DNA of 63,609 nucleotides, the filler included, from Candidatus Nanoarchaeia archaeon (GTDB taxonomy: Archaea; Nanobdellota; Nanobdellia; Woesearchaeales; DATDTY01), in assembly GCA_035290625.1 (NCBI GenBank). It is 5 parts of 5 records of this genome, joined end to end, with 100 filler letters (N's around TTAATTAATTAA, not from the genome) between each part and the next. Parts side by side here need not be neighbours in the genome. Positions count along the whole stretch, not along the records: positions 15,599 to 30,735 come from DATDTY010000031.1; 4 more parts are not named here. The stretch is one strand, 5' to 3'. The translations under genes and the position numbers were made by a program. The notes under the pieces were generated by a model that saw only the letters and a list, made by a program, of their open reading frames with translations, was not told the origin of the DNA and made no database searches. This document shows positions 15,739-32,302 of the stretch, in pieces; the stretch's first letter is position 1, and the number at the start of each line of letters is the position of its first letter.

Positions 15739-15766
15739 GAAAAAAATAATGTAAACGCTAAGAAGT

Positions 15767-15994
15767 CTAGGGCAAAGGCCGCTTGACTGTGAGAGGAATG
15801 ACTCCTGCCTCAAATTCCTTCTTGGCTATCTTCACGGGGTCGTAGCTGAGCTCTTCAAGATCCTTCTCGCCCAATGGGATGCAGAACGGAGCTCCCATAG
15901 AAATCATCAGTGCTCGGCTCCCTATCATCCTGGCCTTTTCGTATCTCGTATACTTCTTTACCAGCCGAATCCTCTTAAAGCTTTTCTTTGCCAT
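15767..15994 (-). CDS. rpoK: RNA polymerase subunit Rpo6 (K)
   Basis: YTRYEKARMIGSRALMISMGAP. Confidence 0.95.
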   Translation of the reverse strand: MAKKSFKRIRLVKKYTRYEKARMIGSRALMISMGAPFCIPLGEKDLEELSYDPVKIAKKEFEAGVIPLTVKRPLP

Positions 15995-15996
15995 GG

Positions 15997-16770
15997 TTAG
16001 ATGAGTTTTCTGAGTTCCTTGCTTTTCTCCACTGCAAGGTCAATCATCGCATAAATATCTTCCTCTACGAGGGGAAAATCTCCGCCTTTCTGGAGCGCGC
16101 AAAGATCCCCTTCTTTTGTGACCGCAACCGTAAGCCTGGCTTCAGACAGCTGTTCCTCTGCCAGTGACGGGTCTATAAAAATAGTGCCTCCTATCTTATG
16201 GACTGTAACCTCCACAGACTCTTCGTTTAATGGAAGCTTTTCCTCTGTGGTGCTCTTGTAATCAATCACTCCGTCAGAAATTTCAGGAAATCTGCAGTTC
16301 TTTACCGCAGCTATGGCTGCCAGGGCAGCAGCGTCAAAAAGGTTACCATCATCATTAACTGAGATGATATCAATCACGACAATCCATGCCTTTTCTCCAG
16401 GCGTGATGCACAATCTCTTAAAATCAATAACTGCAGCCTCCCTAATCCCCCGATCAACGACGCGGGCGAGCTCAATGGCTCCAATCCCTGGAGGCCCTGC
16501 CTCGAAATCCGGGCTTGACAAGGGCAGCAATTCAGCTCCCACCATGATCGTTCCTTCATCCGGCTTGTCAGGATAGGGTGTGCCAAGCTCCAGCTTCACG
16601 CCTGCCAGCACTTCTGTGTCCCCAATTTTCACGCGGCTAGAGCCCTCGGCATTCGGCGATATCCCTGTCTCGACCTGGACGTTCCGGAACTCATTAAGCT
16701 TCCTCCCATCCAGCCGGAAGCCTTTTGCAAAAAATTCAAGCATACGTTGCTTTGAGGTTTTCACTACCAT
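15997..16770 (-). CDS. rrp42: Exosome subunit Rrp42
   Basis: RLDGR, RNase PH fold, ELARVVDRGIRE. Confidence 0.95.
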   Translation of the reverse strand: MVVKTSKQRMLEFFAKGFRLDGRKLNEFRNVQVETGISPNAEGSSRVKIGDTEVLAGVKLELGTPYPDKPDEGTIMVGAELLPLSSPDFEAGPPGIGAIELARVVDRGIREAAVIDFKRLCITPGEKAWIVVIDIISVNDDGNLFDAAALAAIAAVKNCRFPEISDGVIDYKSTTEEKLPLNEESVEVTVHKIGGTIFIDPSLAEEQLSEARLTVAVTKEGDLCALQKGGDFPLVEEDIYAMIDLAVEKSKELRKLI

Positions 16771-17462
16771 CTTCCGTATTTCTCCTTCAGCGCTTTCTGC
16801 TGAACCGTGATGATCTTCTTACATGCCTCTTTTGCCAGCATAATGGCCTTCTTCAGCTGATCCTTCGGCATAATTCCATCCATCTGCAAGAGTGTAATCT
16901 CCCCCGTGCGTGGCAGGAGCGCAATCGGAATGTCTGCCATGCCTCCGGCATAATCCTCTTCCTCCTTTGAGACATCAATCAGGGCGGTTCCGCCTATATA
17001 TCCTGCTGCAATCGCGCTCACCATATCCCTCATGGGAATCCCGGCGTCTGCCAATGCTATAGAGGCAGCGCAAATCCCTGCGCATCGTGTTCCTGCATCA
17101 GTCTGCGGAAGCTCGATAAAAACATCAACGACTGCATTCGGAAATTCAGTCAAGTCCAGGACCGGAAGCAGCGCTTTCTCGGTTACATGCGAAATCTCGC
17201 GCGACCTTCTGTTTGTCCCTGGGCGCACACGCTCCCCTGAGCCTGAGAATGGCATCATGTTATAGCTGCACCGCAGGATCCCTTTTTGGGGGTTCTGAAG
17301 AAACCTTGGATACAGGTCTCTTGGCCCATAGACTGCTGCGTATGCGACAGTCTTTCCAATCCTGAAGTAGCCGCTTCCGTCTGCGCGCTTGATGATGCCT
17401 GCTTTGGCCTCGATATCCCGAAAATCGTTCACTTTCCTATTGTCTGGACGTGTAAATGCCAT
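16764..17462 (-). CDS. rrp41: Exosome subunit Rrp41
   Basis: ADGSG, RRSREIS, DAGTRCAGI. Confidence 0.95.
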   Translation of the reverse strand: MAFTRPDNRKVNDFRDIEAKAGIIKRADGSGYFRIGKTVAYAAVYGPRDLYPRFLQNPQKGILRCSYNMMPFSGSGERVRPGTNRRSREISHVTEKALLPVLDLTEFPNAVVDVFIELPQTDAGTRCAGICAASIALADAGIPMRDMVSAIAAGYIGGTALIDVSKEEEDYAGGMADIPIALLPRTGEITLLQMDGIMPKDQLKKAIMLAKEACKKIITVQQKALKEKYGRW

Positions 17463-18158
17463 TTATACCTTCTTTGCCTCCTTCTTGATCTCGTTCACGT
17501 AATCCTCGATCTTCTTGGTGAGTCCAGGAGTGTGGGCCTCCTCTTCCACTTTCTTTATTATCTTGATAAGGCGCACCTCAGCATCGGGCTCGCCTTTGAT
17601 CCACACAAGCCCGTTTTGGCCTATATAGATCCTGCAGCCTGTTCCCTCCATCAGCGTAACCATGCTGGCATTCTTTCCAATAAGGCGGGGGACTTTATTG
17701 GGGTCGACAGAGATGATGGTGCCGCCTTCGAGTTTCCTCAGCTCAGGCCCCCTCATGCTCAAATCAATCAATTTCTGGCTTGTTACGTTAAAAATCTTCG
17801 TGAAGATAATATCTCCTATCTTAAAGAACCTGGTTAAATCCGCGCCTTTGCTGACAAACTCAGAGGTTGCATCCTTGACATTCAGCATGGCAGAGTAGGC
17901 AGAGTTTGTATCAATCCTCCATCCGGAAAAACTGACATCAGCAACTATCCCGATAATGGTGTCGTCCTTTTTTGGCGCATACTTTCCGGTCAAGGGGATG
18001 ATATGGGCTGTCCTTCCGCTGAGGCTCAGCAATCCGAAGCGCTGGCAAACGACTGAGTCCTTGTCGCGGTATGTACCGCTCCCTGGGATATAGTCCATGC
18101 CTTTGGCAATCTCCTCTCCTGGAACCAGGATATCTTTTTCTTTTGCAAGCAGCGCCAT
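17463..18158 (-). CDS. rrp4: Exosome RNA-binding subunit Rrp4
   Basis: LVPGEEI, S1 and KH (VPRLIGKNASM, GQNGLVW); start MALLAKE coupled to psmA stop. Confidence 0.93.
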   Translation of the reverse strand: MALLAKEKDILVPGEEIAKGMDYIPGSGTYRDKDSVVCQRFGLLSLSGRTAHIIPLTGKYAPKKDDTIIGIVADVSFSGWRIDTNSAYSAMLNVKDATSEFVSKGADLTRFFKIGDIIFTKIFNVTSQKLIDLSMRGPELRKLEGGTIISVDPNKVPRLIGKNASMVTLMEGTGCRIYIGQNGLVWIKGEPDAEVRLIKIIKKVEEEAHTPGLTKKIEDYVNEIKKEAKKV

Positions 18159-18889
18159 TACTTCTTCTTCAGCTCCCGAATTGCCTTGTCGATCTTCTGC
18201 CTTGAGATCTTCGTGAATTTCCGCTCTGCTGTTGTGATATAGGCTGCATCTATCCTGTCTGCATTCAGATTCTTGTCTAATATCTTCCGAAGGCTCTGCA
18301 AACACAACATGAACCCCTCCTCAATTGTCATCTTCTCAGAATACTCTTTATGGAGGATCGGCTCAATCTCAGCTTCGCCTTCACCAATGACGCTTGCCTT
18401 GTATTGGAAGAAGATCCCTGTTGGGTCAGTCTCAAACAGCTTTGGCCCGTCAGGATCTATGCCTGCAATCAGCAACGCAACCCCAAAAGGCCTCAAACCG
18501 CCTGACTGGGTGCAAATCTGGCATAAATCAGAAACCTCCTTGACGACTGACTTGACGTCAATCTCTGAATCGAATGTAATCCGGTTCTGGTGCGCCCTCA
18601 ACTGGGCGCGCTCAATCAAGACCCTGGCATCAGACAAAATCCCCGAGGCACTTGTGGCAATGTGGTCATCAATCTGCCAGATCTTGTCCACAGATTCAGG
18701 CACAATCAAAACGTCAACAATCCTCTTGTCTGTAACCAATAATACGCCGTCGGAGCATACCATGCCGATGGCTGTAGAGCCCTGCTTCACGGTTTTTTTG
18801 GCGTACTCCACCTGGAGAAGCCTTCCGTCCGGGCTGAACATAGTTATTGCCCTGTCATATCCCATAATCTGATGTGGCATTGGCTGCAT
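18158..18889 (-). CDS. psmA: Proteasome alpha subunit
   Basis: GYDRAITMFSPDGRLLQVEYA. Confidence 0.97.
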   Translation of the reverse strand: MQPMPHQIMGYDRAITMFSPDGRLLQVEYAKKTVKQGSTAIGMVCSDGVLLVTDKRIVDVLIVPESVDKIWQIDDHIATSASGILSDARVLIERAQLRAHQNRITFDSEIDVKSVVKEVSDLCQICTQSGGLRPFGVALLIAGIDPDGPKLFETDPTGIFFQYKASVIGEGEAEIEPILHKEYSEKMTIEEGFMLCLQSLRKILDKNLNADRIDAAYITTAERKFTKISRQKIDKAIRELKKK

Positions 18890-19227
18890 TATCTCACCCC
18901 CTCTGTCCTCTGGATTGCTTTTTGTACCATACCGCTAACTCCTAGTGACCTGCAAATAACCTCTTTTCCCTGAATCCTGACGAAGCAAAAGCCTGCCTTG
19001 AGATGGTCTACAAACCTGTGCCCAATGCGGATAACTCCTCTCTGGTTTTTCCAGACATCTATAAATTGCACTCCAAACTTGCTTGCTCCTGCAACCCCGA
19101 ACAGGCTGTGAAGGCTCTGCAAAATCGCTCTCTGGGCATCTCCGAAGCGGGCCGGACTCGCAGACATAATCTCAAACGCCACATATCGCTTCTTTTCCCG
19201 CAAACTTGGCTGCAAGGCCTTAATCAT
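18889..19227 (-). CDS. rnp2: RNase P protein Pop5/Rpp14
   Basis: PSLREKKRYVAF, SLGVSG; canonical position before psmA. Confidence 0.88.
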   Translation of the reverse strand: MIKALQPSLREKKRYVAFEIMSASPARFGDAQRAILQSLHSLFGVAGASKFGVQFIDVWKNQRGVIRIGHRFVDHLKAGFCFVRIQGKEVICRSLGVSGMVQKAIQRTEGVR

Positions 19228-19289
19228 CTGTCCTCTCTGAGAAAACAGTGTTCTGCTTCTCTCTCATTCACCTACTGCGGAATCCATGA

Positions 19290-20894
19290 TTATTTATAAA
19301 TCTTTGGGTTTCGAACAGCCAGATACGCAACTACACCTAAAACTCCCAGCAGGATGATGTTTATTGCGGCAAAAAGACGGCTTGTGGAGCCTAAAAGCCA
19401 GCCTTTTGTTTCCCACGATGACGAAATACTATCTGTCTCATCTGGTTCAGCAGGCCTGGATTCCTGGCCTAATTGAGGGGCTTCAGCAGCTTCTTGAGGA
19501 ACAGCTTCCAGAGAAGGGCTTTCTTCTTGGGCTATTCGCTCTGCCTCTTCAACCATCTCCTCAACCACAGTCTCATATTCGAATCTTTGTGTTAGACGCT
19601 CCCCAAATTCTGTGGCATACGCTATCTGGACAAGATAGCTGTACACCCCCCTCTCAGCAGTGTAGGAGAAGCTTGCGATATCCTTATCCTCAATGAGTTC
19701 TCCCAATGTGATTTGCGCTGGCTGAATTCCAGGGATTGATGTCTCGGTTGTGATCTGTACATCCCTCATCTTTTGTGATGATGGATTGTATACTGTTGCT
19801 GCGAAATCAACCCTCTCGCCTGGCTGCGCTCTTTCTTTTGCCTGGAACCTGATGCCTGGTTCAGGTGCAAGTACGGTGAGTGGGATCTCAATGTTTTGCT
19901 CTTCTGCGAATCCATTGATGCGGCTCTCAATAACTGCTTTTATAGGCGTCCTGCCTGAGCGCGTTCCTGAGAAATTGACAACAAGCAGCTCTCCCTTTTT
20001 GCTATCGAGAGATATCCTCTTTGTGAGTTTTGTGCCGTCCTTCTCGAAGCCGTGGCTTCGCATTCCAAATACAGTCCCTGGCGGAAACATAAGCTCAATG
20101 GCTCCGCTGGACTCATGTTCCGGGTTGGTATTGGTGATGTTGATCTCAAGCCTGTTTGACCTTCCGATACTGCTTGCATTCTCTGCAAGCCTAGGGACAG
20201 CCTGTATTGCTGCATTGAATACCTCGATCTTTGACTTCAGCGAATCAGTTTTTGCGCTGCTGCCATCAAAATAGACAACTTCTGCAACACTGTCATTTTT
20301 TCCGCCGGATTTTCCAGCAATAGTGTATCTGCAGGCATGCTCCTGCCCAGCCTCCAACGCTCCTTCCCACTTGTATACGCTGCCTGAAAGCGAACAGCCT
20401 TCTACATTGATGGTAAGTCCTATTGTCGAAGGATACCTGTCAACAAAAACAACGTCTGCTGCTTTCCAGTCTCCGGTATTCTTTAGTGCAACAGCAACAT
20501 CAGTCTCCTGGCCAATAAGCAGTGCGGCATCATCGATTGTCTTGGTGAGCTGGACTGATGCGGTTTTTGAATAGATGCTGAGCGACGCCTCCCACACATT
20601 TTTGTGCGTGGCATTCGGATAGGTGAAATAGATCGAGTTCAGGCAGAACTGGATATTGCCCTCCTCTTTGCACGAAGCATTTCCCACAATCATGCTCTTC
20701 CCAGCAGATTCAAGAAGAACCTCAGCAGGAGCAGCATATCTGTCCTGGTCTGAGAACCTAATCCTATACGCAGTGCCATCAACAGTAATGTTGTTGCCTG
20801 ATGCATAGGTTCCTGTGGAAATCAGCTGGGCTCCGAGAGCCGTTTGAGCCAATGTCAAAAACATCCAACCCAGAAAAAAGCACCTCTTGAGCAT
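19290..20894 (-). CDS. Secreted, C-terminally anchored surface protein (DUF11/Ig-like)
   Basis: Signal peptide, LKNTGD-type strands, acidic linker, C-terminal TM. Confidence 0.7.
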   Translation of the reverse strand: MLKRCFFLGWMFLTLAQTALGAQLISTGTYASGNNITVDGTAYRIRFSDQDRYAAPAEVLLESAGKSMIVGNASCKEEGNIQFCLNSIYFTYPNATHKNVWEASLSIYSKTASVQLTKTIDDAALLIGQETDVAVALKNTGDWKAADVVFVDRYPSTIGLTINVEGCSLSGSVYKWEGALEAGQEHACRYTIAGKSGGKNDSVAEVVYFDGSSAKTDSLKSKIEVFNAAIQAVPRLAENASSIGRSNRLEINITNTNPEHESSGAIELMFPPGTVFGMRSHGFEKDGTKLTKRISLDSKKGELLVVNFSGTRSGRTPIKAVIESRINGFAEEQNIEIPLTVLAPEPGIRFQAKERAQPGERVDFAATVYNPSSQKMRDVQITTETSIPGIQPAQITLGELIEDKDIASFSYTAERGVYSYLVQIAYATEFGERLTQRFEYETVVEEMVEEAERIAQEESPSLEAVPQEAAEAPQLGQESRPAEPDETDSISSSWETKGWLLGSTSRLFAAINIILLGVLGVVAYLAVRNPKIYK

Positions 20895-20937
20895 AGGGTG
20901 TTTTGAAGAATTGGGTTATATATAGTTATCGATGTCT

Positions 20938-21384
20938 TCACGGCACAACCGTAATCAACTGGCCTGTGGTAGATTTTGCTAATCCAGCAGAGCCGACAGA
21001 ATAGTCCACTGCCAGACTCCCTTTTATCTTCTGTTTAGGATTAAGGCCTGCGGAGCATTCCAGTATAAAATCCGCCTCGCTGTCAGAACCAACAACTCCT
21101 CCTGCAGCAGCAGCGCAAGAGGGATCATCCAATGTTATGCTGCTCACAGAAACAGGATCAGGAAGGATATTCCTAAGCCTCAATGTAACTGTATCTGCAC
21201 TCGAACTCGTAGAAAACTCCTCGCAAAATATCCCGGAACTGGTCGCAATCAAGCATTTCTCAGGCAAAAACTGCTCGGCCTTGTTCACTCCGAAATATGC
21301 AAGCGCACCGATAGAAATAAGGACAACCAAGATGGCCCAGCCATAGGTCATCAAGAACTCCATGGCAGCCTGTCCTTTTCTCAT
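20938..21384 (-). CDS. Class III signal peptide pilin-like protein, paralogue 2
   Basis: MRKGQAAMEFLMTYGWAILVVL. Confidence 0.85.
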   Translation of the reverse strand: MRKGQAAMEFLMTYGWAILVVLISIGALAYFGVNKAEQFLPEKCLIATSSGIFCEEFSTSSSADTVTLRLRNILPDPVSVSSITLDDPSCAAAAGGVVGSDSEADFILECSAGLNPKQKIKGSLAVDYSVGSAGLAKSTTGQLITVVP

Positions 21385-21416
21385 AACAACTCACACCACG
21401 TGCTGTATAGTATCCA

Positions 21417-21491
21417 TCAATTGATATACCTCAATTATATGTCTCAAATTATATATCTCAATTATGTACTGTATACTTAATCAATTATTAA
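21417..21491. repeat. AT-rich imperfect tandem repeats
   Basis: TCAATTGATATACC, TCAATTATATGTC, TCAAATTATATATC, TCAATTATGTAC, then TCAATTATTAA. Confidence 0.65.
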
Positions 21492-21562
21492 TCACTTTTA
21501 TATCCTCATTATCAATCATACTAAATAAACCTTCTTAAAACAAGAATAAAAAGAAAAAAAAT

Positions 21563-22021
21563 TTATGGAACCGTAGTCACAATCTGCCCTGTCGCGCTCT
21601 TTGGAAGCCCAGACCCTGCCGCTGAACCGGCATCAAAAGCAACGGTGATTGCTCCTTTGATCTTGTCGCCTGATGTAAGGCCTCCTGCGCATGCAAGCAC
21701 AAAGTCTGCGGTTGCATCAGCCGCAATCTGCGTGTCTGCTGTTGCGAAGCTACAGCTTGGAGCGCTTATCGTGATAGAATCAACCCAGGCACTCTCAGTG
21801 AGGATATTATGGATCCTCAGCGTTACAGTATCTGCGGATGCGCTTGAGGAGAACTCATCACAGAACAGCCCAGATCCTGTGCTAATCACGCATTTCTCTG
21901 GCAGGAATCTATCAGGGCTCAGCACTCCGAAATAGGCAAGTGCCCCAATCGCAACAAGAACAACCAAGATGGCCCAGCCATACGTCATAAGGAACTCCAT
22001 GGCAGCCTGTCCTTTCTTCAT
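21563..22021 (-). CDS. Class III signal peptide pilin-like protein, paralogue 1
   Basis: MKKGQAAMEFLMTYGWAILVVL; SD GGTGA; similar along its length to 20938-21384. Confidence 0.87.
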   Translation of the reverse strand: MKKGQAAMEFLMTYGWAILVVLVAIGALAYFGVLSPDRFLPEKCVISTGSGLFCDEFSSSASADTVTLRIHNILTESAWVDSITISAPSCSFATADTQIAADATADFVLACAGGLTSGDKIKGAITVAFDAGSAAGSGLPKSATGQIVTTVP

Positions 22022-22257
22022 ATCATCACCTCTCCTCTTTTTGTAAATAGCATTATTCCTATTCTTGGCAATTCCCCTATTTAAATCTTTTGATTAAAAC
22101 GAGGCGTTTTTGAGTCCGGCGCCAACCGAGGCTCCATTTTCCATAGGACCGAGCATCCAGACCTGAGCAACCTGGGTCGCTCGGATGAAACGAATTCAGG
22201 CAGCAAAAAAGAAACACTTAAAAAGAGCAGGAAATCTTTACCCTCAGGACATACGAA

Positions 22258-22974
22258 ATGATTCCACGAAAAATATTCTTTACCAAGGGCGTTGGTGTCC
22301 ATAAGCATTATCTGCAAAGCTTCGAGCTTGCGCTACGCAATGCAGGCATTGAAAAGGCGAATATTGTGAACGTGTCGAGCATTTTTCCGCCCAATGCCGA
22401 GGTTATCTCCAAAGAACAGGGGGTCAAATACGTGAAGCCCGGTGCAATAACCTTCTGCGTCATTGCACGGAATTCCACAAATGAGCCCAACCGACTGATT
22501 GCCGCTTCCATCGGAGCAGCGATCCCGGCTGACAAAGGGACATACGGCTATCTCAGCGAGCACCATCCAAACGGAGAGACAGAGGACAAGGCAGGGGACT
22601 ATGCCGAAGACCTTGCGGCAACGATGCTTGCAAGCACGCTTGGCCTCGAGTTTGACCCTGACAAGGCATGGGATGAGCGGAAGCAGGAATTTATGATGTC
22701 GGGGAAGATTGTCAAGACGCGCAATATCACCCAATCTGCGCAAGGAAATAAATACGGCTTGTGGACATCCGTCGTTGCTGTTGCAGTGCTCGTCACAGAC
22801 CAGATGATTGCAGACTATGCTGCAATGCAAGAGGCAGCCCAGGCAAATTCTGAAAACTTGGTGAAGGAGGATGCTCCCAAGGACAGCGCATTGAAGAACA
22901 GCATCAAGAAGCCCTTTTCCCTTGCCCGCTCTGTTTTTGGAAGGAAAAAGGAGCAGCAGCCAAAGCCGGCGTGA
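22258..22974 (+). CDS. pdaD: Pyruvoyl-dependent arginine decarboxylase
   Basis: [19 protein letters not shown] self-cleavage site, YGYLSEHH. Confidence 0.92.
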
Positions 22975-22977
22975 ACA

Positions 22978-23182
22978 ACGCCCTTGAAAAGTTGCTCGCT
23001 TCGCTCGGCAGCGCCAGTACTCAAAAATGCTTCGCATTTTTGGTCGCTTCTGCGGAGCAGTTCGCCATGTGCAAATCAAGCAGAATAGCGACATTCTCCG
23101 AAGGCGCCAACCCTCTTGTCGTTGCGCCGCATCGCCTTTATGATGGCTCACAAGAGGGCGCCGCATGACTTTTCAATGGCGT
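22978..23182 (+). repeat. Folded intergenic element, copy A (with about 45-bp hairpin insert)
   Basis: Terminal IR ACGCCCTTGAAAAGT/ACTTTTCAATGGCGT; homologous to the reverse complement of 53309-53468. Confidence 0.85.
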
Positions 23183-23227
23183 CGCTTGAACAAAAGCTTA
23201 ATAAACACACTTTCTCTTATTGGCTGA

Positions 23228-24904
23228 ATGCAATTCTTTGAAGAGCATATCAGGAAGATCCTTGCAAAGCATACGAAGGCTGCTCCAGGGGCCTTCAGGC
23301 TTGAAATTCCTCCGTCACAAGAATTCGGCAACTATGCACTGCCCTGCTTCTCTCTTACAAAGATTGCCAAGTCTGCTCCGAGTGCGATAGCAAAGGATCT
23401 GCATGAAAAGATACTCCCCGACGAAATTATCGAACGGACTGAAGTCAAGGGGCCTTATCTTAACTTCTTCATACGCCAGGCATTGTTCGCTGAGAAGATC
23501 ATCCAATTGATTCAGACCAATGAGTTTAGGAGAGTGCCTCGTAAAAACAATACGGTTATGGTTGAGTTCTTCCACGCAAATACCCATAAAGCGGTCCATA
23601 TCGGGCATATCAGGAATATCTGCCTGGGAGAGTCTCTTTCGAGGATCCTGGAACAGAGAGGCTCTACGGTAATTCGAGTTAACTACCAGGGCGATATCGG
23701 CCCCCATGTAGCAAAATGCCTTTATGGGCTCCTCCACTCAAAGGAAAAGCCGCCTTTGCGCCATAGGGGTGTCTGGCTTGGAAAGGTCTACAGCCGGGCC
23801 CATGAGCTGGCAAAAGACCCAAAAGTCCAGGAGGAACTCCGCACCATCAACAAGAATCTGTATGCAGGCGACCCGAAGATCATCAAACTCTGGAAAAAAA
23901 CCAGGAAGTATTGCCTTGACGATTTTGAGGAACTTTACCGCGAATTTGACGTCAAATTCAAGCGGCTGTATTTTGAAAGCGAGGTTGAAAAACACGGAAT
24001 CGAGCTTGCAAAACATCTTTTGGCGGAAGGGATTGCTAAAGAAAGCGAAGGCGCTGTCATTGTTGACCTCAAGAGCTATGGGCTCTCCGTCTATGTGCTG
24101 CTGACAAAAGACAAGCATGCCGTGTACCACACAAAAGACCTTGCCCTTGCTGAGCTCAAGGCAAAGGAGTACCCTCGCGTTGACCTTTCGATCCATGTGG
24201 TGGGAAAGGAGCAGGAGCTTTACTTCAGGCAGCTCTTCAAGACCTTTGAACTCATCAATTCTCCGATGAAAGGAAAGTCGCATCATGTGATCTATGGCCT
24301 GGTCATGCTGCCTGAGGGAAAGATGTCTTCCCGCGAAGGAACGGTTGTGCTTTATGATGATCTTATTCAAACCATGCTGAAGAGGGCTTCCCAGGAGGTT
24401 GCCAAGAGGCACTCGTGGACAAAGAAAAAGATTGACGCGTCTGCCAAGGCTATAGCATTTGGAGCGCTCAAATACAGCATGCTCTCACGTGAGAACAACC
24501 GGGAAATTATCTTTGACTGGGATACCGCATTGTCTTTTGAAGGCGAGACTGGGCCTTACATCCAGTATGCCTATGCGCGGATATGCTCAATCCTCAGAAA
24601 ATGCAAAAGGGGCGCTAAGCCCAACTTTGGGTTGCTGAACTCTGAGAAGGAGCTGGGCCTGCTCTCTGCACTGGCTGGATTCCCGGGAGCGGTTGAGCAT
24701 GCTGCCCAGAACTACTCTCCCCACACTGTAGCAAATTATGCCTATACTGTGGCAAAAGCATTCAGCGAATTTTATACCAGCAATCGGGTGATCCAGGAAG
24801 ACAAGGCCTTGGAGGCAGCAAGGATAAGCCTCATCACATCAACAAAGGCAGTCCTTGAGGAATCTCTCCGCCTGCTTGGCATCACAGCACCGCAAGAAAT
24901 GTGA
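23228..24904 (+). CDS. argS: Arginine--tRNA ligase
   Basis: HIGH, KMSSR, GETGPYIQYAYAR, C-terminal PQEM. Confidence 0.97.
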   Translation: MQFFEEHIRKILAKHTKAAPGAFRLEIPPSQEFGNYALPCFSLTKIAKSAPSAIAKDLHEKILPDEIIERTEVKGPYLNFFIRQALFAEKIIQLIQTNEFRRVPRKNNTVMVEFFHANTHKAVHIGHIRNICLGESLSRILEQRGSTVIRVNYQGDIGPHVAKCLYGLLHSKEKPPLRHRGVWLGKVYSRAHELAKDPKVQEELRTINKNLYAGDPKIIKLWKKTRKYCLDDFEELYREFDVKFKRLYFESEVEKHGIELAKHLLAEGIAKESEGAVIVDLKSYGLSVYVLLTKDKHAVYHTKDLALAELKAKEYPRVDLSIHVVGKEQELYFRQLFKTFELINSPMKGKSHHVIYGLVMLPEGKMSSREGTVVLYDDLIQTMLKRASQEVAKRHSWTKKKIDASAKAIAFGALKYSMLSRENNREIIFDWDTALSFEGETGPYIQYAYARICSILRKCKRGAKPNFGLLNSEKELGLLSALAGFPGAVEHAAQNYSPHTVANYAYTVAKAFSEFYTSNRVIQEDKALEAARISLITSTKAVLEESLRLLGITAPQEM

Positions 24905-24905
24905 G

Positions 24906-25169
24906 TTATCTCCTCTTCTGAACATTCTTCGGAGTATCCCTCCATTCAAGGCTTCGCCTTTTGATCGCATCTGAGTACACTGCCATAAGAAACAGTGCGT
25001 AGCCAAGCAAAAAAATACCAAGCGATTGGATAAGGCCATTTCCTCCTGGCGAAAGAAACTCTCCCCGAAAAGCAGGCTGTGGCTGGGCCAGAAGATACCC
25101 TATCCAGAGGAAGGCGAGCACAAAAGGAGAGAACAGAATGCAATGCTTCGTGATACTTTTCCTTTCCAT
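24906..25169 (-). CDS. Small hypothetical membrane protein
   Basis: Two hydrophobic segments; TTTTATA-like element upstream. Confidence 0.5.
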   Translation of the reverse strand: MERKSITKHCILFSPFVLAFLWIGYLLAQPQPAFRGEFLSPGGNGLIQSLGIFLLGYALFLMAVYSDAIKRRSLEWRDTPKNVQKRR

Positions 25170-25230
25170 AAGCACAAGCCTCGGTTAACTGCAGTATCTT
25201 GTTCTACTATAAAAACGTTTCATTACATAC

Positions 25231-25393
25231 GGCTGCGGTGAAAATCAATGCTGCCGCCTCTTTGCGAGGCTCTTAAAGAGTACTATGACCTGAGTTGAGG
25301 GGGACGCCCCATCGGAGGATATGTCGCTTTACGCTAAAACATGAAGAGCCGAGCCCGGCACTGCCTGCGAAGCAGAATGATTCCAGCAGAGCC
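25231..25393 (-). repeat. Folded intergenic element, copy B (degenerate)
   Basis: Imperfect IR GGCTGCGGTGAAAATCA/TGATTCCAGCAGAGCC; collinear blocks with 53309-53468 (TCTTAAA, ATGTCGCT, GCGAAGC). Confidence 0.65.
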
Positions 25394-25444
25394 ATTACCC
25401 GCCAAAGCCGCAACCATTAAATATCCTTAGATAACGGTTTCTCC

Positions 25445-26239
25445 ATGCTCAAGCCGAACATCACTCCTGACAGCAAGATGGCGGAACTGCAGGAGAAGCT
25501 CAAGAAGATGTCTCCGGAGGAGCTTAGGGAGTTCCAAAAGAAGCAGTGCGTATTCTGCCAGATCATCTCAGGAAAGATTCCATCAAAGAAGGTGTATGAG
25601 GATGCAGTCAGCTTTTCTGTCCTGGATATCAACCCTGCAAATCTCGGCCATATGCTTCTGATGCCCAAGGAGCATTACTCGATCATGCCTCAAGTCCCTG
25701 ATGCGGATCTCAAACATCTATTCAAGGTTGCGAAGAGCCTTTCCTCAATTGCCCTTAAGGGCCTGAAGGCAGAGGGCACAAGCATCTTTATAGCAAACGG
25801 AGCAGCAGCGGGCCAGCGCGCCACCCATTTTATGGTCCATATCATCCCAAGAACGCAGGATGATCATGTGCCGCTTTCCATCCCTCAAAAAAACGTTCAA
25901 AAAGAGAGCCTGGAGAAGATCCGTATCCAACTCTCCAAAAAGGTTGAAGAGCTGCTCGGACCGGGCTATACAGAATTCGATACAAAGAGTGTACAAGAGC
26001 GTGCACAGGCAAAACCTGAATCAAACCGCTTTGAGCAGCCGATCCTGGAGGCAGAGTATACTGAGCCAAAGGCTGAGCCGAAGCAACAAAAAGAACAGCC
26101 AAAGACAGAGCTCAAGAAAGGGCATCTGAAATCGCCTCGTAAAAAAGAATCCAAAGAATTCAAAAAGGGCGAGCCCAGGAAAGAAACTACGGGAGAATCC
26201 TCCCTTGACGAAATCGCCCGGGTCCTGGGAGGAAACTGA
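25445..26239 (+). CDS. HIT-family protein with degenerate triad and low-complexity tail
   Basis: CVFCQI, LDINPANLGHMLLMPKEH, AGQRATHFMVHIIPR. Confidence 0.88.
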   Translation: MLKPNITPDSKMAELQEKLKKMSPEELREFQKKQCVFCQIISGKIPSKKVYEDAVSFSVLDINPANLGHMLLMPKEHYSIMPQVPDADLKHLFKVAKSLSSIALKGLKAEGTSIFIANGAAAGQRATHFMVHIIPRTQDDHVPLSIPQKNVQKESLEKIRIQLSKKVEELLGPGYTEFDTKSVQERAQAKPESNRFEQPILEAEYTEPKAEPKQQKEQPKTELKKGHLKSPRKKESKEFKKGEPRKETTGESSLDEIARVLGGN

Positions 26240-26766
26240 TGGGCTGCGTCTATTGTGAACTGAGGGATGGCCAGCGCGGAATTAAAAAGGTCTATAAGGA
26301 CGAGAGCACCTTTGCGGTCCTGCATCCAAATCCGGCAGTGCCTGGACATGTCGTTGTGATGCCCAAAGAGCACGTCACCATCCTTGAGCAGCTCTCTGAT
26401 TTTGAGGTTGAGCAGCTCTTTACAACAACCAACGCGCTCTCAAAGCTTCTCTTTGAGGCTCTGCCTATCCAAGGAACAAACATTATTATCCAGAATGGAT
26501 CCACTGCCGGGCAGGAGATTCCACATGTTGCAGTCCATCTTATCCCAAGATTCGAGGGAGACGGGCTCAGCTTTGAGTGGGAGCCGAAAAAGTATTCGGA
26601 TCAGGAAATGTCGACGGTAGAGGTCCTTTTCCGGGAACTTGCAAAGCAGCTTACCTTTGATCATGGTACGAAAAAAGAGGTTAGGCTGGAGCCAAAAAAG
26701 GAGGTTCTGAAGGAAGAGCCCGGAGCAGAGAATGTTATGCTGCGGCACCTGAACCGGATACCTTAA
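26239..26766 (+). CDS. HIT-family protein with degenerate triad
   Basis: CVYC, PGHVVVMPKEH, AGQEIPHVAVHLIPR. Confidence 0.88.
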   Translation: MGCVYCELRDGQRGIKKVYKDESTFAVLHPNPAVPGHVVVMPKEHVTILEQLSDFEVEQLFTTTNALSKLLFEALPIQGTNIIIQNGSTAGQEIPHVAVHLIPRFEGDGLSFEWEPKKYSDQEMSTVEVLFRELAKQLTFDHGTKKEVRLEPKKEVLKEEPGAENVMLRHLNRIP

Positions 26767-27071
26767 AAGCGGCGGAGCTTTCTCTCAAAATCAACAATCT
26801 TCCCTTTCTTTATGGAAATGCCTTCATTCTCTAAGAGCCAAATCTTTCCTTCCACTCCGCCTCTTCCACTGAATCTTCCAACACTTCCATCGCTCCGCAC
26901 TACACGGTGGCAAGGCACTTCAGGAGCATAGGGATTGAGCCTCATTGCGGTTCCAACAGCTTGGAAAGCCTTGCTGCCGACAGCCTTGGCAAGATCAGCG
27001 TAGGTTGTGACATTTCCTTTTGGCACCTTTCTGAGCTTTGCATAGACTTTTTCTTGGAAGCGGGTTGGCAT
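26763..27071 (-). CDS. MGMT-family O6-alkylguanine DNA-binding/methyltransferase protein
   Basis: VTTYADLA, AVGTAM, VPCHRVV. Confidence 0.9.
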   Translation of the reverse strand: MPTRFQEKVYAKLRKVPKGNVTTYADLAKAVGSKAFQAVGTAMRLNPYAPEVPCHRVVRSDGSVGRFSGRGGVEGKIWLLENEGISIKKGKIVDFERKLRRF

Positions 27072-27072
27072 G

Positions 27073-27702
27073 TTATTCCCGGAGACCTTTGGCAATTTTT
27101 ATAATCTCTTCTGGCTTGTCAGCTATAAAGTCCGGTTTTGCTCTCTCTAAAATCTTTCTCGAATTGAACCCCCAGGTTACTGCAATGATGGGGACCTTTG
27201 CTTTTCTGCATGCCTCTATATCTCTCACTTCGTCTCCGACGTAGATGGTCTCTGCTGGCTGAAGGCGATAGGTTTTAAGCAGTTTTTTCAGGGAGCGGTG
27301 CTTGCCGAACACCGAACTGTTTGAGAAGATGAAACTGAATGATGTAACGCCCTCTTTGACAAGAACCTTCTTTACAATCTCATCGCTGTTGGACGTGAGG
27401 ATTCCAAGACGAAACTGTCTTGAAAGCATTTTCACAGTGCTTGGGATTCCTTTAAAGAAGCGTATGCTGCTGGCCTTCGCTTCCATGATCTTCCTCGCCT
27501 TCCTCACATAGTAAGGAACCCTATAGACTGAAACCCCCAGATCCTTGGTAAAGATCTGTAATGCTGTTTTCTCCCTGAGCGATTCATTTGCTTTCAGCTG
27601 CGGCCGGTTTTCCTGCTTCGCAAGCTCATTCATGCATTCGATCATGATTCTGCCTGTGTCTGCAAGCGTTCCGTCGAAGTCGAAGATGATGGTGGTGAGC
27701 AT
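27073..27702 (-). CDS. HAD-superfamily hydrolase (phosphoglycolate phosphatase-like)
   Basis: FDFDGTL, LTSN, YVGDEVRD, VTWG. Confidence 0.92.
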   Translation of the reverse strand: MLTTIIFDFDGTLADTGRIMIECMNELAKQENRPQLKANESLREKTALQIFTKDLGVSVYRVPYYVRKARKIMEAKASSIRFFKGIPSTVKMLSRQFRLGILTSNSDEIVKKVLVKEGVTSFSFIFSNSSVFGKHRSLKKLLKTYRLQPAETIYVGDEVRDIEACRKAKVPIIAVTWGFNSRKILERAKPDFIADKPEEIIKIAKGLRE

Positions 27703-27756
27703 GCAGATATTGATTCCTTATTTATTTATATACTTTGACAAAATACCCCTATTAAA

Positions 27757-27828
27757 GGGCTCGTAGTTTAGTAGCAGAACACACCCCTCGCACGGGTGAG
27801 ATCCCGGGTGCGATTCCCGGCGAGTCCA
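27757..27828 (+). tRNA. tRNA-Ala (anticodon CGC)
   Basis: Acceptor GGGCTCG/CGAGTCC with G3:U70, anticodon arm CACCC-CTCGCAC-GGGTG, T arm CCGGG-TGCGATT-CCCGG, discriminator A, no encoded CCA. Confidence 0.93.
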
Positions 27829-27894
27829 TGACGAGCCGGACCAGGAACGCAGTTCCGCTGCCCGGCGAGTCGATCGAGCCAATAAATTCTCCCT

Positions 27895-29238
27895 TTACAT
27901 TATCTCCTGCAATATATCTTTTCTACTTTCTCCTCTCAGTTTTCTCATTGCCTTGGCCTCGATTTGCCTCACTCTTTCCCGTGTGACGCCAAAACGATTG
28001 CCGACTTCCTTAAGACTATGTGTTCTCATCGGAAGCCCATGAAGCGGAATTCCGTATCTGAGCCGCATCACGGTCTCTTCCCTCTCTGTCAGCGAAGAGA
28101 GCACATCTTCTATTCTGGCAAGGCTCTCCTCATCTGAACCGATATCTGAGGGATAGCGTATGGTTGTATCGGGGATACAATCCTTCAGCTCTGCCTTTTC
28201 GTCCCTTCCACATTTTGTGTGGATTGAGATCTCTCCCTTTTTGTATTTCACTACATCAACCTCTTTGGGTTGTATGCCCAGTCTTTCAGCAACCTCTTCA
28301 GGACTTGGAGATCTTCCTAACTGTTTCATGAGATCATCCTGTGCACGGTTAATCCTTCTGATTTCCACTTGTTTTCCGACAGGCACTCTGACGTTTTTCG
28401 CGTGGGTATCAATTGCCCGACCTATCGACTCCTTGATCCACCAGGTTGCATACGTGGAAAATTTATACTCTTTCTCCTGCTGAAACTTCTCAGCAGCCCG
28501 CATCAGGCCGAGGTTGCCTTCCTGGATAAGGTCATCCATATCCATGCCTTTTCCTCTATATCCTTTGGCAATAGAAACTACCAGACGCAGATTTGGCAGA
28601 ATAAACCCATTCACAGCATCCCGATACTCGTCAAGATTCATCCTCAATGTTGCATACTTCTTTGAGATCCCCCTATGCTTTTTGGCAAGCGAATCCGATT
28701 CTTTTGAAGAACATCGCTCTAATCTCTCTTGATACCTCTGCTTCTGGGACGCAAATCTCTCCAGCAGCATGTCTGACATCTCTGCAACCATGCCGAGTGC
28801 AAGCCATTTTCCACGAAACGCTTCCCTTGCTTTTTGCCTGGAATACCCGTTTAATATAAATTCCATATCTGAGTAGAACTCACGATAATCCTGTTCTTGT
28901 GGATCACCTATCTCTGTCGCATCCTGAAACAGCCACCCGAGTTGCTTAACAAACCCAGCCTGCTTTGGAGGTGATATGCTTTCTGCAACAGACATCCCTA
29001 CCTTTTGATACCCCACAGGATTATGCAGATACCCTCCAGAAATATACTCTCCTGCGCAAAAAATCAAGGGCATATAATGCCTGACGAGTTCATCCAATCC
29101 AACCTCAATCACGGCCTCCTTGAGCCTTAGCCCGGCACTGTCTTTTTTCTCTCCTAGCTCAGCCTCCTGTTCCCGGGTAAGAAGCTGTTTGCTTGCTGCG
29201 AAATACCAAGGAAGGCTGTACACATCTGATGGTAGCAT
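27895..29238 (-). CDS. Sigma-70 family (RpoD-like) factor, paralogue 1
   Basis: Region 1.2 [10 protein letters not shown]; region 2 [39 protein letters not shown]; region 3 [11 protein letters not shown]; region 4 [28 protein letters not shown]. Confidence 0.93.
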
Positions 29239-29255
29239 GCAGCAAAGTAATAGAA

Positions 29256-29278
29256 TTTATTATATTAATCTATCTTTC
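29256..29278 (-). promoter_or_regulatory. Putative archaeal BRE/TATA upstream of sigma paralogue 1
   Basis: Minus strand GAAAGATAGATTAATATAATAAA; TTAATATA lies 23-30 nt upstream of ATG; no SD. Confidence 0.45.
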
Positions 29279-29320
29279 TCCTGGCCATTTGCGCTCAAGA
29301 AAGCAAAATCTGAAACAGCA

Positions 29321-30688
29321 TCACAGGCAGTTTTCCAGCATCTTTAGTCTGAAGGGCATATGTAAAGAATTCATTGCCTCACTTTCAATCTGCCGGATCC
29401 TCTCACGCTTTAATCCAAATCGCTGGCCTATCTCCTCTAATGTACATTGTTTGAGGGGCTTCCCGGGATACCCCAGCCCCAATCGGAATCTCATCACCAC
29501 TTCCTGCCTGAAGGGCAATGTGGAAAGGGTTTTGTTGAGATACTCGTCGGCTTCTGCATCAAGCAGACCTTTACCAATCGGCTCACGTGAAGTGTCCTCA
29601 AAAAGATCCCCAATCTCAGAGCCTTCTTCAACCATCTCGTTGAGAGATACACACTTTGGAAGCATCTGGAGCTTTTGAACCTGATCCTGGCCGATTCCCA
29701 AAGCAGCAGCAAGCTCTTCTTCTGTGGGCTGTCTAAGCTTTCTGGCGGTGAGCTCTTGAGTCACCCGATGCAAGCGCCGATTCAATACCCTCTTTTTTTG
29801 TGGAACATGGATTGTTGAGTATCTCTCGTCAGCTGCCCGGGAGATTGCCTGGCAAATCCACCAGGTGCCATAGGTAGAAAATCTTCCAAGGGTATGATCA
29901 AATCTCTCTGCTGCGCGTATGAGGCCTATATTTCCCTCTTGAACCAAGTCCAGCAAAGGGGCTCCTGTTCGTTGGTAGCCTTTTGCCGCATCTACAACCA
30001 GCCTCAAGTTGTGGTTTATGAGGGCATCCCTCGCATCAAGGTATCCTTGCATGCCAATCCTGATTCTTTCATATTCAACCTCCCCATTTCCATTCTTTGT
30101 GACCCGGGATCCAATATCGAAGACAGCCTTTGCAGGCATCTTTAAGAGATACTCTGAAATCTTTCCAGAATCGGTACTCGCACTCTGAAATGCCTGATAA
30201 AAGTCCTGCATTCTGGCAACAAGATCATCTTCTGCTATATCTCCTTCATCGCAGTCAATCCCTATTGCATCAAGAAACATCCCTGTAACCTTTTTTTCAA
30301 ACTCTTTCCTAGTCTGATCAGTGATCTTTTTGAGGCGGAGCCCGATCTCCTGATATGATTCAGGTTCTGTAATATACCTCTTTGAGAGATAAGTATTTAT
30401 TCTGGCCGCAAGCCGTTCATAATACTCGCGAACGGCAGCAATTCCTGGCTTTATCCTGACCAGGTTCTCTCTTATGATGCCTGTATGCTCCTTCTTCTGC
30501 TGGCTCAGCTGTGCCTCCTGCTCTGCTGTCAGCAGCGGAAACTGGCTTGCCTCGTGTAGATATGACAATACAAGATTGCTCTCTGAATGAGATCCGGAAC
30601 CCTCTTCATTCCCCAAATCCATCTCAGAGAAAAACAACAGGCTGTTTAATAAGATTTCTCTATTTTCCTGTCCATCTTGGCCATCCAC
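29321..30688 (-). CDS. Sigma-70 family (RpoD-like) factor, paralogue 2
   Basis: SYLHEASQFPLLTAEQE; NLRLVVDAAKGY..DLVQEGNIGLIRAAERFD..RFSTYGTWWI; TLEEIGQRFGLKRERIRQIE; start uncertain near contig end. Confidence 0.92.
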   Translation of the reverse strand: MDGQDGQENREILLNSLLFFSEMDLGNEEGSGSHSESNLVLSYLHEASQFPLLTAEQEAQLSQQKKEHTGIIRENLVRIKPGIAAVREYYERLAARINTYLSKRYITEPESYQEIGLRLKKITDQTRKEFEKKVTGMFLDAIGIDCDEGDIAEDDLVARMQDFYQAFQSASTDSGKISEYLLKMPAKAVFDIGSRVTKNGNGEVEYERIRIGMQGYLDARDALINHNLRLVVDAAKGYQRTGAPLLDLVQEGNIGLIRAAERFDHTLGRFSTYGTWWICQAISRAADERYSTIHVPQKKRVLNRRLHRVTQELTARKLRQPTEEELAAALGIGQDQVQKLQMLPKCVSLNEMVEEGSEIGDLFEDTSREPIGKGLLDAEADEYLNKTLSTLPFRQEVVMRFRLGLGYPGKPLKQCTLEEIGQRFGLKRERIRQIESEAMNSLHMPFRLKMLENCL

Positions 30689-30735
30689 TGCTTTAGCTCA
30701 AACTTGTTGAAGAATTCCTGAGCCTTCACGCTAAA

Positions 30736-30835
30736 NNNNNNNNNNNNNNNNNNNNNNNNNNNNNNNNNNNNNNNNNNNNTTAATTAATTAANNNNNNNNN
30801 NNNNNNNNNNNNNNNNNNNNNNNNNNNNNNNNNNN
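30736..30835. other. Artificial contig linker
   Basis: N-run, TTAATTAATTAA, N-run. Confidence 0.99.
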
Positions 30836-30928
30836 TAACAGTATATAACCTAAAGTCTTTAGATTTTAAGGCTATAAGACTTAATCCTGCTGAATTTGGA
30901 TGCCCATAAGCGGAAAATCCGTTATGAC
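30836..30928 (-). repeat. Possible attC-like site truncated by contig start
   Basis: Minus strand GTCATAAC...CTGTTA at the contig edge, downstream of the 62-aa gene; local hairpin CATAA-G-CGGA-AAA-TCCG-TTATG. Confidence 0.3.
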
Positions 30929-30954
30929 TGATAAATAAGGAAAAAAAGAAAAAA

Positions 30955-31143
30955 TCAGGATTTGAGCTTTTCCTGAAGCTCTTTATCCTGTTCAATGAGT
31001 TTTCTTAGAAAACGGGCATACATGGCTTCCCAGTAGCCGCATTTCTCATACCATGGAATGCGCCATTTCATAAGGTCTCTGACATCATTCTGGAGCTTGT
31101 CCAGCATTTCTTTTCTTTCTAACCATATTTTATCTAGTTTCAT
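30955..31143 (-). CDS. Small hypothetical protein (candidate first cassette gene)
   Basis: 62 aa, SD GAGGTGA, divergent from the integrase. Confidence 0.6.
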   Translation of the reverse strand: MKLDKIWLERKEMLDKLQNDVRDLMKWRIPWYEKCGYWEAMYARFLRKLIEQDKELQEKLKS

Positions 31144-31471
31144 TTAATCACCTCAAATGTTTTTAATATTCCTAAAGGAAGGAAATCAATGAAGTTTTGT
31201 ATGCAATGGAAAGCTCAATTAATCTCCTGACTGTCACTAAGGCATTTGAGGTTATGAAACTGAGAAATTGGAGGAAGATAAAGAATTGGGCATTGACCAC
31301 AGAATAAGATGTTGGAGGTGAAATGGCAGAATGTGGCATTAATTTCGGATGGAAATTTTGTATGTAAGGCTAAAACTATTCTTTTCAATATCGCAAATAA
31401 CCACAGGACACTGGACATCTTCGCGTGAAGTATTTAAACTAATAATTGATTATCATAACAATGTGATTCAA

Positions 31472-32302
31472 ATGGACGTACCGGAATTGATAAGGAAAGA
31501 AGGGCTAAGGAGAGGGTTAAGCCACAAAACAATAAGGACTTACAGGCAATGCGTCAGGAAGTTCTTCGGCTGGTTCAAAAAGGAGCCGAATGAAGCAAGC
31601 AAAACTGACATTAAAGATTATCTGGACCTGATGATTGAGAAAGGCGCATGCGGCAGCACCATTAATGTGAACTTGAACGCATTAAAGTTTTTTTATGGCA
31701 ATGTTTTACGCAAGCGGCTGATGATCAATATAAGATACTCAAAAACGCCTAAAGCGCTGCCAATCGTTTTGACTAAAGAAGAAGTTGCAATGCTGATAAA
31801 TTCAATAAGCAATCCCAAGCACAAGCTTATGGCAAAGCTTATGTATTCTGCCGGGCTTAGAGTAAGCGAGCTTGTTCATCTCAAGCCGGAAAATCTTGAC
31901 ATCAGGAACGGCTATGGATGGGTAAGGCATGGCAAGGGCAACAAGGACAGGATGTTTGTAATAGCGGAAAGCATTAAGGAGGAGCTGGCTTCGTACATAG
32001 CAAAAGAATGCGTGTCTTCCGATTCTTATATCTTCAGAGGATTCAGCGGGCACATCACCACAGCAACTGTAAGGTCTGTAATAAAAAATGCAGTGAAGAA
32101 TGCCAAACTATCCAAGCATGCCCACCCGCACACTTTAAGGCACAGCTTTTCAACGCATCTTATAGAGAACGGAAGCAGCGTTGCAGAAGTCCAGTCATTG
32201 CTTGGGCACAGCAGCGTAGAAACAACAATGATCTATCTCCATATCGCCTCTCCCAAAATGATTGGCGCAAAAAGCCCGATTGACAGCCTGCCTATCCTCT
32301 AA
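31472..32302 (+). CDS. Tyrosine recombinase, integron-integrase/XerD-like
   Basis: SAM-like N-domain (SHKTIRTY), GLRVSE, GKGNKDR, HPHTLRHSF, LGH, TTMIY, C-terminal KSPIDSL; no IntI-specific insertion. Confidence 0.93.
   Translation: MDVPELIRKEGLRRGLSHKTIRTYRQCVRKFFGWFKKEPNEASKTDIKDYLDLMIEKGACGSTINVNLNALKFFYGNVLRKRLMINIRYSKTPKALPIVLTKEEVAMLINSISNPKHKLMAKLMYSAGLRVSELVHLKPENLDIRNGYGWVRHGKGNKDRMFVIAESIKEELASYIAKECVSSDSYIFRGFSGHITTATVRSVIKNAVKNAKLSKHAHPHTLRHSFSTHLIENGSSVAEVQSLLGHSSVETTMIYLHIASPKMIGAKSPIDSLPIL

Follow-up and report, generated by a model that had tools for sequence, protein, structure and literature searches.

Two intact genes for proteins of the sigma-70 family, here called sigma1 and sigma2, lie in tandem within the 63,609-nucleotide stretch of DNA analysed here (the window), which comes from the genome assembly of Candidatus Nanoarchaeia archaeon (GCA_035290625.1). 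The pair is almost certainly made up of genuine, intact and tandem-duplicated sigma-70 members that are resident in a Woesearchaeota-type DPANN chromosome. Sigma factors on one side and TBP/TFB on the other are the textbook markers that divide bacterial from archaeal transcription, and sigma genes that have long been maintained in archaea without a bacterial polymerase pose a mechanistic puzzle. Judged from the residues that are conserved, the pair may act on the archaeon's own RNA polymerase (RNAP) through the clamp coiled coil, a reading that is given a probability of roughly 35%. The two genes belong to an already reported population of DPANN sigma-70 genes, and are placed as follows:

27895 to 29238, minus strand: sigma1, sigma-70 family protein of 447 amino acids with region 1.2, a helical non-conserved insert and regions 2, 3 and 4
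29321 to 30688, minus strand: sigma2, 455 amino acids from the GTG at 30688, or 433 amino acids from the ATG at 30622

Domain organisation and predicted structure

An earlier note on this DNA had described two intact sigma-70 open reading frames (ORFs) with regions 1.2, 2, 3 and 4, and this was borne out: the coordinates given for them are right and there are no internal stops. Pfam searches, in which the cut-offs are about 24–25 bits for the models of regions 2, 3 and 4 and 22 bits for that of region 1.2, gave 71.7 (Sigma70_r2), 59.8 (r3) and 63.7 bits (r4) for sigma1, and 56.7 (r2), 40.5 (r3), 46.3 (r4) and 26.5 bits (r1_2) for sigma2. There was no Pfam r1_2 match in sigma1, residues 7–25 of which fall on the region-1.2 columns of a 70-protein alignment. 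Region 1.1 (PF03979) was found by Pfam in neither protein, and only 15–45 residues precede region 1.2. Both proteins pass the superfamily model TIGR02937 (123.7 bits for sigma1 and 91.9 bits for sigma2; cut-off 42.9). With the NCBIfam equivalog models for RpoD and RpoS, both proteins stay below every cut-off, the best RpoD model reaching 263.5 against a cut-off of 555, and RpoD_Cterm reaching 255 (sigma1) and 182 (sigma2) against 354. Assignment of the pair to the group 1 primary sigma factors, as RpoD/SigA equivalogs, was rejected on the grounds of these scores, the lack of region 1.1 and the lack of a bacterial core RNAP.

The best match of sigma1 among solved structures is E. coli sigma70 (3iyd_F, E 3.9e-63), with residues 199–445 aligned to residues 364–609; matches to SigB and RpoS (1e-47 to 1e-39) and to RpoH (2e-22) all rank behind those to primary sigma factors. 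Structure modelling covered sigma1 only. The AlphaFold2 model has a mean predicted local distance difference test (pLDDT) score of 81.9, falling below 50 only at residues 69–112 and at the first four residues, and in a Foldseek search with this model the top matches were E. coli sigma70 chains in holoenzyme (E 1e-19). According to the predicted model, the sigma fold, with its helical domains sigma2, sigma3 and sigma4, is present in sigma1. The start of the sigma2 gene is more likely the ATG at 30622, because the GTG start overlaps an upstream ORF and a 433-amino-acid cluster member (P0127) exists.

Paralogy and phylogenetic position

The two proteins align with 32% identity over 445 columns in a single BLASTP high-scoring segment pair (E 5e-58). 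The stretches of their non-conserved regions that had been quoted as alike in the earlier note fall together within this one alignment, and residues 14–115 of sigma1 alone match the sigma2 gene (33% identity, E 2e-6). The N-terminal parts of the pair have no bacterial match. A word-based search with residues 1–205 of sigma1 returned the self match only, and a HMMER search of 1.84 billion representative proteins with the N-terminal part of about 205 residues returned three matches at E ≤ 0.001. The sole clear relative among these is a fragment of 138 amino acids with 74% identity; the other two are giant proteins hit in many short stretches, probably on composition. In the ESM Atlas, the clusters nearest to the N-terminal part of sigma1 carry Sigma70_r1_2 or Sigma70_ner, with a best score of 0.91, which is to be taken as a lead only.

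Tandem duplication within the lineage would be the simplest reading of how the pair arose, a duplication having been proposed in the earlier note. The two are paralogues, and with them constrained as sisters the tree gains 33.6 log-likelihood units over the free quick tree and is accepted by the test (p-AU 0.879), a sister result in which long-branch attraction is possible.

The quick maximum-likelihood tree was built from 70 rows (45 archaeal and 25 bacterial) and 313 columns, the bacterial rows being near-primary sigma factors, with group 3 and group 4 references left out. Its backbone is not settled, the archaeal rows are not one clade and the starred branches force at least three label changes. 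Bacterial primary sigma factors group tightly in a starred cluster, and six archaeal rows fall inside it; these come from four genomes, and two of them are one and the same gene. Sigma1 and sigma2 sit on long end branches (1.15 and 1.62) and in no starred set. Over regions 2–4 the best bacterial identity is 49–51%, and the best archaeal identity is 45%. A contig scan with sigma1 returned bacterial RpoD loci only, the region 4.2 pattern having saturated the scan. Two outcomes had been raised for checking, nesting within a bacterial clade at high identity and a DPANN-specific clade; at 49–51% identity the former was not found, and a single DPANN-specific clade did not emerge either.

Residence in the archaeal genome

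The window is composed of five contigs (C30, C31, the first 20.5 kb of C33, C36 and C41) taken from a genome of 84 contigs and 1.37 Mb with a completeness score of 100%. The contigs are joined by runs of N:

15499 to 15598, 30736 to 30835, 51317 to 51416 and 56340 to 56439: N spacers between the contigs

Contig C31 (window 15599–30735; 15,137 bp) carries the sigma pair at its 3' end, where only 47 nucleotides remain past the sigma2 GTG. On the same contig are found rpoK (15794–15958), three exosome genes (Rrp4, Rrp41 and Rrp42), psmA, a pyruvoyl arginine decarboxylase gene and argS, and the closest named relatives of psmA are from Candidatus Woesearchaeota, Nanoarchaeia and Nanoarchaeota archaea (71–77% identity). 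The view that the pair lies without a gap alongside psmA, the exosome genes, rpoK and argS thus holds for C31, and fails for the window as a whole with its five contigs.

Immediately beyond the 3' end of sigma1 lie two features:

27757 to 27828, plus strand: tRNA-Ala(CGC), convergent with sigma1, called by ARAGORN and by the Rfam tRNA model (60.7 bits on contig L106)
27816 to 27871, plus strand: 45-nucleotide direct repeat that starts with the tRNA 3' end, the 11-mer CCCGGCGAGTC

A chimeric junction at this tRNA, which had been raised as a concern, was not found. An independent metagenome contig of 34,371 bp (L106) is 100% identical to the locus in the part compared; where it crosses the tRNA-Ala junction both flanks are identical, and it runs past the end of C31 into a further contig of the genome, C17 (FTR1 permease, DapB, DapA and MetRS). 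The two assemblies possibly share reads, and their independence is not proven. Contigs with the exact sigma proteins number 15 and 13 and reach a length of 35,225 bp, a maximum that the exact psmA protein gave as well; the only closely related DNA found was 100% identical. The 11-mer CCCGGCGAGTC occurs in two copies in this assembly and in four in L106 (12818–12963), four matches standing against 0.15 expected, and TRF describes the tRNA-adjacent repeat as 3.2 copies of period 45 with 98% matches. Possibly it is what remains of an att-like site, or else a repeat that collapsed in assembly, and no further copy of the tRNA 3' end occurs within 20 kb.

The composition of the sigma region is that of its genome: its tetranucleotide distance from the genome mean lies at the 43rd percentile of 852 genome windows, and the codon-usage correlations of the two sigma genes lie at the 38th and 72nd percentiles. 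The basal machinery encoded by the genome consists of one TFB, one TBP, one Rpb2_6 match and one Rpb1_1 match, the last two both on C40, where the Rpb1_1 gene encodes an Rpo1N of 887 amino acids with archaeal features. No bacterial alpha C-terminal domain was found above cut-off in the genome, and no bacterial core RNAP is encoded in it.

In addition, sigma1 appears to have its own archaeal TATA-type promoter, a call that rests on the following sequence lying at the genome-wide TATA distance:

29260 to 29268, minus strand: TATA-box-like TTAATATAA, beginning 30 nucleotides upstream of the sigma1 ATG, candidate archaeal promoter

Across the genome, the regions upstream of genes show a 5- to 7-fold excess of TATA-like hexamers, which peak 25–35 nucleotides before start codons.

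Distribution and earlier reports

The genome holds seven Sigma70_r2 matches on six contigs, among them a 102-kb contig with the ribosomal operon. Besides the pair, these are a gene for 529 amino acids on C9, an ECF-type (extracytoplasmic function-type) gene for 177 amino acids on C81 and three longer paralogues:

C28:14859–16715, C33:84871–86700 and C70:1–1556: three sigma-like paralogues of about 610 amino acids, with about 190 extra amino acids at the N-terminus and about 150 at the C-terminus

Sigma1 and sigma2 are the most like a primary sigma factor of all the sigma-like proteins of this genome. When sigma1 was used to query 40 further genomes of the order, one per family, a match was obtained in 17, including one one-contig and one three-contig assembly. 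The Pfam region-2 model found a match in 128 of 300 other genomes of the phylum, all at least 90% complete (127 of 299 when the unpublished genome G261 is dropped), and in controls it matched none of four archaea and all ten bacteria. Archaeal homologues are therefore plentiful, although their absence had been envisaged. In one relative of the same order (G039, C3:16372–20151), four sigma-70 family genes stand in a head-to-tail array. At three of 37 loci of relatives (L123, L124 and L125), MutL-like/HATPase_c_3 genes lie directly beside sigma genes, an arrangement that recalls the MzaA/MzaB pairing.

Sigma factor genes were reportedly described in this archaeal group by Rinke et al. 2013, earlier than by Castelle. 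In the later paper, sigma-70 genes (fam00359) are described from many DPANN genomes and from Woesearchaeota above all; mis-binning is excluded there, no anti-sigma factors were found and the mechanism is left open (Castelle et al. 2021; PMC8204110). The tenet that Archaea have no sigma factors, stated as established in the earlier note, is outdated in the light of that paper and of the 128 genomes above, and the novelty that had been implied is superseded in the same way, archaeal sigma-70 genes being already in print (PMC8204110). Since the phenomenon has been published, the present locus is a further, incremental example of it. No functional study of archaeal sigma factors was found in literature searches.

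Residue conservation and a possible role at the archaeal polymerase

Residues were numbered by alignment to E. coli sigma70 and compared across 45 archaeal sigma proteins, which lie on long branches. In bacteria, D403, Q406, E407 and N409 bind the clamp helices, Y430, W433 and W434 act in melting, Q437 reads the -12 position, R584, E585, R588 and Q589 read the -35 element, and H455 and E458 serve the extended -10 element. The clamp-helix positions are kept in 44 (D403), 38 (Q406), 43 (E407) and 37 (N409) of the 45 proteins, and the melting aromatics in 44 (Y430), 39 (W433) and 44 (W434). Q437 is kept in 40/45 and the -35 readers in 34/45 (R584), 39/45 (E585), 40/45 (R588) and 39/45 (Q589); the extended -10 positions are looser (H455 25/45, E458 23/45). 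None of the clamp, melting and -35 positions is changed in sigma1 or sigma2. In sigma2, T440 is replaced by S, H455 by K and E458 by V, and Q437 is kept.

Such retention on long branches argues for selection on an activity that would be linked to RNAP and would open DNA. Clamp-binding and melting residues are purposeless in a protein that binds duplex DNA only, and because they are kept across the archaeal copies, action on the archaeon's own RNAP is favoured. The docking site of region 2.2 would be the clamp coiled coil of the cell's own Rpo1N, the homologue of the bacterial beta-prime clamp helices, a site otherwise occupied by the TFB linker, TFE and Spt5; contacts with DNA would be made by regions 2.3/2.4 and 4.2. 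The two proteins would then be RNAP-associated promoter-specificity or promoter-opening factors for a limited number of genes, where their part in initiation would be auxiliary or alternative, or would lie in competition with TFB and TFE at the clamp site. The wider proposition, that the DPANN sigma-like proteins are working initiation factors on archaeal RNAP that open DNA at a lineage-specific class of promoters, is doubtful.

Several observations weigh against action on the archaeal RNAP. Sigma1 departs from E. coli sigma70 at the -12 reader itself, with E at Q437, and also has G at T440, G at H455 and V at E458. Because the 45 archaeal rows were selected for matching the region-2 model or sigma1 well, the counts are biased towards conserved members; the conservation pattern fits action on a bacterial RNAP equally well. 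On the side of the polymerase, 45 of the 49 positions of the Rpo1N clamp coiled coil (residues 253–301) are invariant in 30 genomes of the order sampled irrespective of sigma; since the clamp is near-invariant while 17 of 40 genomes of the order carry sigma, the polymerase shows no sign of adaptation to it. Nor is a regulon visible in promoter sequences. On the extended locus the pattern TTGACA-N16-18-TATAAT occurs at 28 sites, which is no enrichment over shuffled sequence (24.1 +/- 5.6), and neither is there any in the genome at large, where in 864 upstream regions two-box sigma-70 sites number 16 at a threshold of at least 10/12 (13 +/- 2.9 in a first-order Markov control) and one at the stricter threshold of at least 11/12 (1.1 in the control).

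When 419 upstream regions that lack a TATA-like box were contrasted by k-mers with 357 that have one, no coherent alternative motif emerged. Prediction of a complex between residues 1–290 of sigma1 (69-row alignment) and residues 1–400 of Rpo1N (30-row alignment) gave 0.00 in two runs, which were made without controls and count neither for nor against such a contact.

Alternative explanations

It is possible, though on balance unlikely, that the two proteins are stand-alone DNA-binding regulators, which would act as repressors or activators through the helix-turn-helix of region 4.2 (perhaps with regions 2.4/3) and make no contact with RNAP. Many regulators of bacterial type control the basal machinery of archaea, and the pair would then be similar to these. 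The conserved recognition residues of region 4.2 accord with this, as do the unadapted polymerase clamp and the lack of enrichment of two-box promoters. The missing region 1.1 points the same way, and in bacterial sigma70 this region masks DNA binding. What such regulators leave unexplained is the near-invariant surface of region 2.2 and the aromatics of region 2.3 in copies that diverged long ago.

A second explanation, which is improbable, would have the proteins act as effectors on the RNAP of a bacterial partner, delivered by cell-cell contact and redirecting host transcription in the manner of phage sigma factors. All determinants for a bacterial core are indeed kept, the -35-reading residues are identical to those of a primary sigma factor, the best non-self matches are bacterial RpoD proteins at 49–51% identity, and matching promoters are not enriched in the archaeon's own genome. 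However, neither N-terminus carries a secretion signal (as read by eye, with no predictor run), there are no adjacent secretion genes, the genes are embedded among housekeeping genes and the sigma1 promoter is archaeal. No evidence of a bacterial host was seen for the lineage, and an effector meant for delivery would hardly be expected to come as seven paralogues that differ so much in architecture.

A mobile element or an anti-phage system, for example one like MZA with its sigma-70 family protein MzaA, is highly improbable. The NCBIfam MzaA model is the top match of sigma2 and the second of sigma1, and the PADLOC MzaA model also matches; the scores of 261 and 210.6 bits are nevertheless far from the cut-off of 800, and the PADLOC match covers only the generic regions 2–4. 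The locus abuts a tRNA with a duplicated 3' end, and MutL-like ATPase genes lie beside sigma genes at 3/37 loci of relatives, as set out above. Against this, no neighbour (HAD, Ogt, HIT, zinc-ribbon ORF, FTR1, DapB or DapA) has a PADLOC match, no second copy of the tRNA 3' end exists within 20 kb and the composition is host-like.

An assembly chimera or binning contamination, in which a bacterial fragment would have been fused to an archaeal contig at the tRNA gene, is scarcely credible: the sigma genes do stand near a contig end just past the tRNA, and the copy number of the tRNA-adjacent repeat does differ between assemblies, but a longer second contig spans the tRNA and runs on into a further contig of this genome, the sigma genes resemble the host in composition and codon usage, TBP/TFB and a single archaeal RNAP are encoded, seven sigma-like genes sit on six contigs including that of the ribosomal operon, relatives assembled in one and three contigs also carry sigma genes, and sigma1 has an archaeal TATA box. 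Even when taken together, a mobile or defence element and an assembly artefact are very improbable. The probability that remains falls to an explanation not yet considered.

Genomic setting and neighbouring genes

On one side of the sigma pair lie genes for HAD, Ogt and HIT proteins and on the other, as read from the independent contig, a zinc-ribbon ORF followed by genes for FTR1 permease, DapB and DapA (all named from Pfam, other than the zinc-ribbon ORF). This ORF is placed as follows:

30646 to 30735, minus strand: 3' part of the zinc-ribbon ORF, 72 amino acids with four cysteines (CPYC...CSSC), cut by the contig end and complete at L106:9825–10043

The sequence of the independent contig places it immediately upstream of sigma2, the GTG start of which it overlaps. 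Searches of it with Pfam, NCBIfam and PADLOC gave no match, and it was ruled out as a conserved partner of sigma, such an ORF being present at one of the 42 sigma ORFs examined.

The integrase, EMC3-like, SecY and ribosomal protein genes to the right of the pair in the window are on C33, so their adjacency to the pair cannot be claimed; because of the N spacers between contigs, gene neighbourhoods are not readable across the spacers. C33 opens with a low-GC stretch (about 39%; window 30836–32302) in which a tyrosine recombinase gene (31349–32302) precedes the EMC3-like gene and SecY. In a relative (G160, locus L133), a sigma gene is next to an EMC3-like gene and SecY.

Two families of dispersed repeats of about 200 nucleotides were seen, each with copies that are 86–93% identical. 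One is represented at window 22894–23088 and has copies on C34, C18, C53, C27, C9 and C14. The other, copied on C81 and C72, is found at L106:9545–9748, a short way upstream of the unit formed by the zinc-ribbon ORF and sigma2; being about 200 nucleotides from the end of C31, it may be the cause of the assembly break there. An Rfam scan of L106 at the gathering threshold gave no family at this second repeat.

The only PolX, Nre, MutS-domain-V and Ogt genes of the genome are each one to two genes away from a sigma-like gene (on C9, C28, C33 and C31, the last at 26763–27095), and a gene like AP endonuclease 2 is also beside the sigma gene on C9. PolX was tallied as present in 49/151 genomes (48/150 without G000, and 45/147 when the unpublished G355, G359 and G364 are left out as well). 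A link between sigma factors and DNA repair is unproven and probably coincidental, since none of 28 PolX loci of relatives holds a sigma-like gene within about 1.5 kb.

Significance and comparison with known systems

As a discovery the locus is incremental, and it does not settle the mechanism of archaeal sigma genes. It is good test material: the paralogues are compact and intact, the promoter of sigma1 is recognisable, and a single RNAP, TFB and TBP have been identified. From the conservation described above it is predicted that function depends on the surface residues of region 2.2. If the DPANN sigma-like proteins did work as initiation factors on archaeal RNAP, initiation in this archaeon would be a bacterial/archaeal hybrid, with as many as seven specificity factors.

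Compared with the bacterial group 1 and group 2 sigma factors (RpoD, SigA and RpoS), the pair has the same succession of region 1.2, a non-conserved insert and regions 2–4, and the same fold; it is 49–51% identical to them over regions 2–4 and keeps the core-binding, melting and -35 residues. It differs from them in the absence of region 1.1, which nearly all of the bacterial matches carry, in the altered -12 and extended -10 positions, in its long branches and in a genome without a bacterial core RNAP. MzaA (NF041931, PDLC02203) provides the profile matches that reach furthest towards the N-terminus (residues 18–445 of sigma1 and 31–453 of sigma2), whereas the pair scores far under the cut-off of that family and has no partner genes nearby.

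The pair is also close to the DPANN sigma-70 genes of family fam00359, which, going by their published description, likewise lie beside archaeal markers in genomes with TBP and TFB and with no evident anti-sigma factor (PMC8204110). Here too the sigma-70 genes are co-encoded with informative archaeal genes, rpoK, exosome genes, psmA and argS being on the same contig. In contrast to the fam00359 genes, sigma1 and sigma2 form a tandem pair that shares an N-terminal region of about 200 amino acids, and their genome is unusually rich, with seven sigma-like genes in 1.37 Mb.

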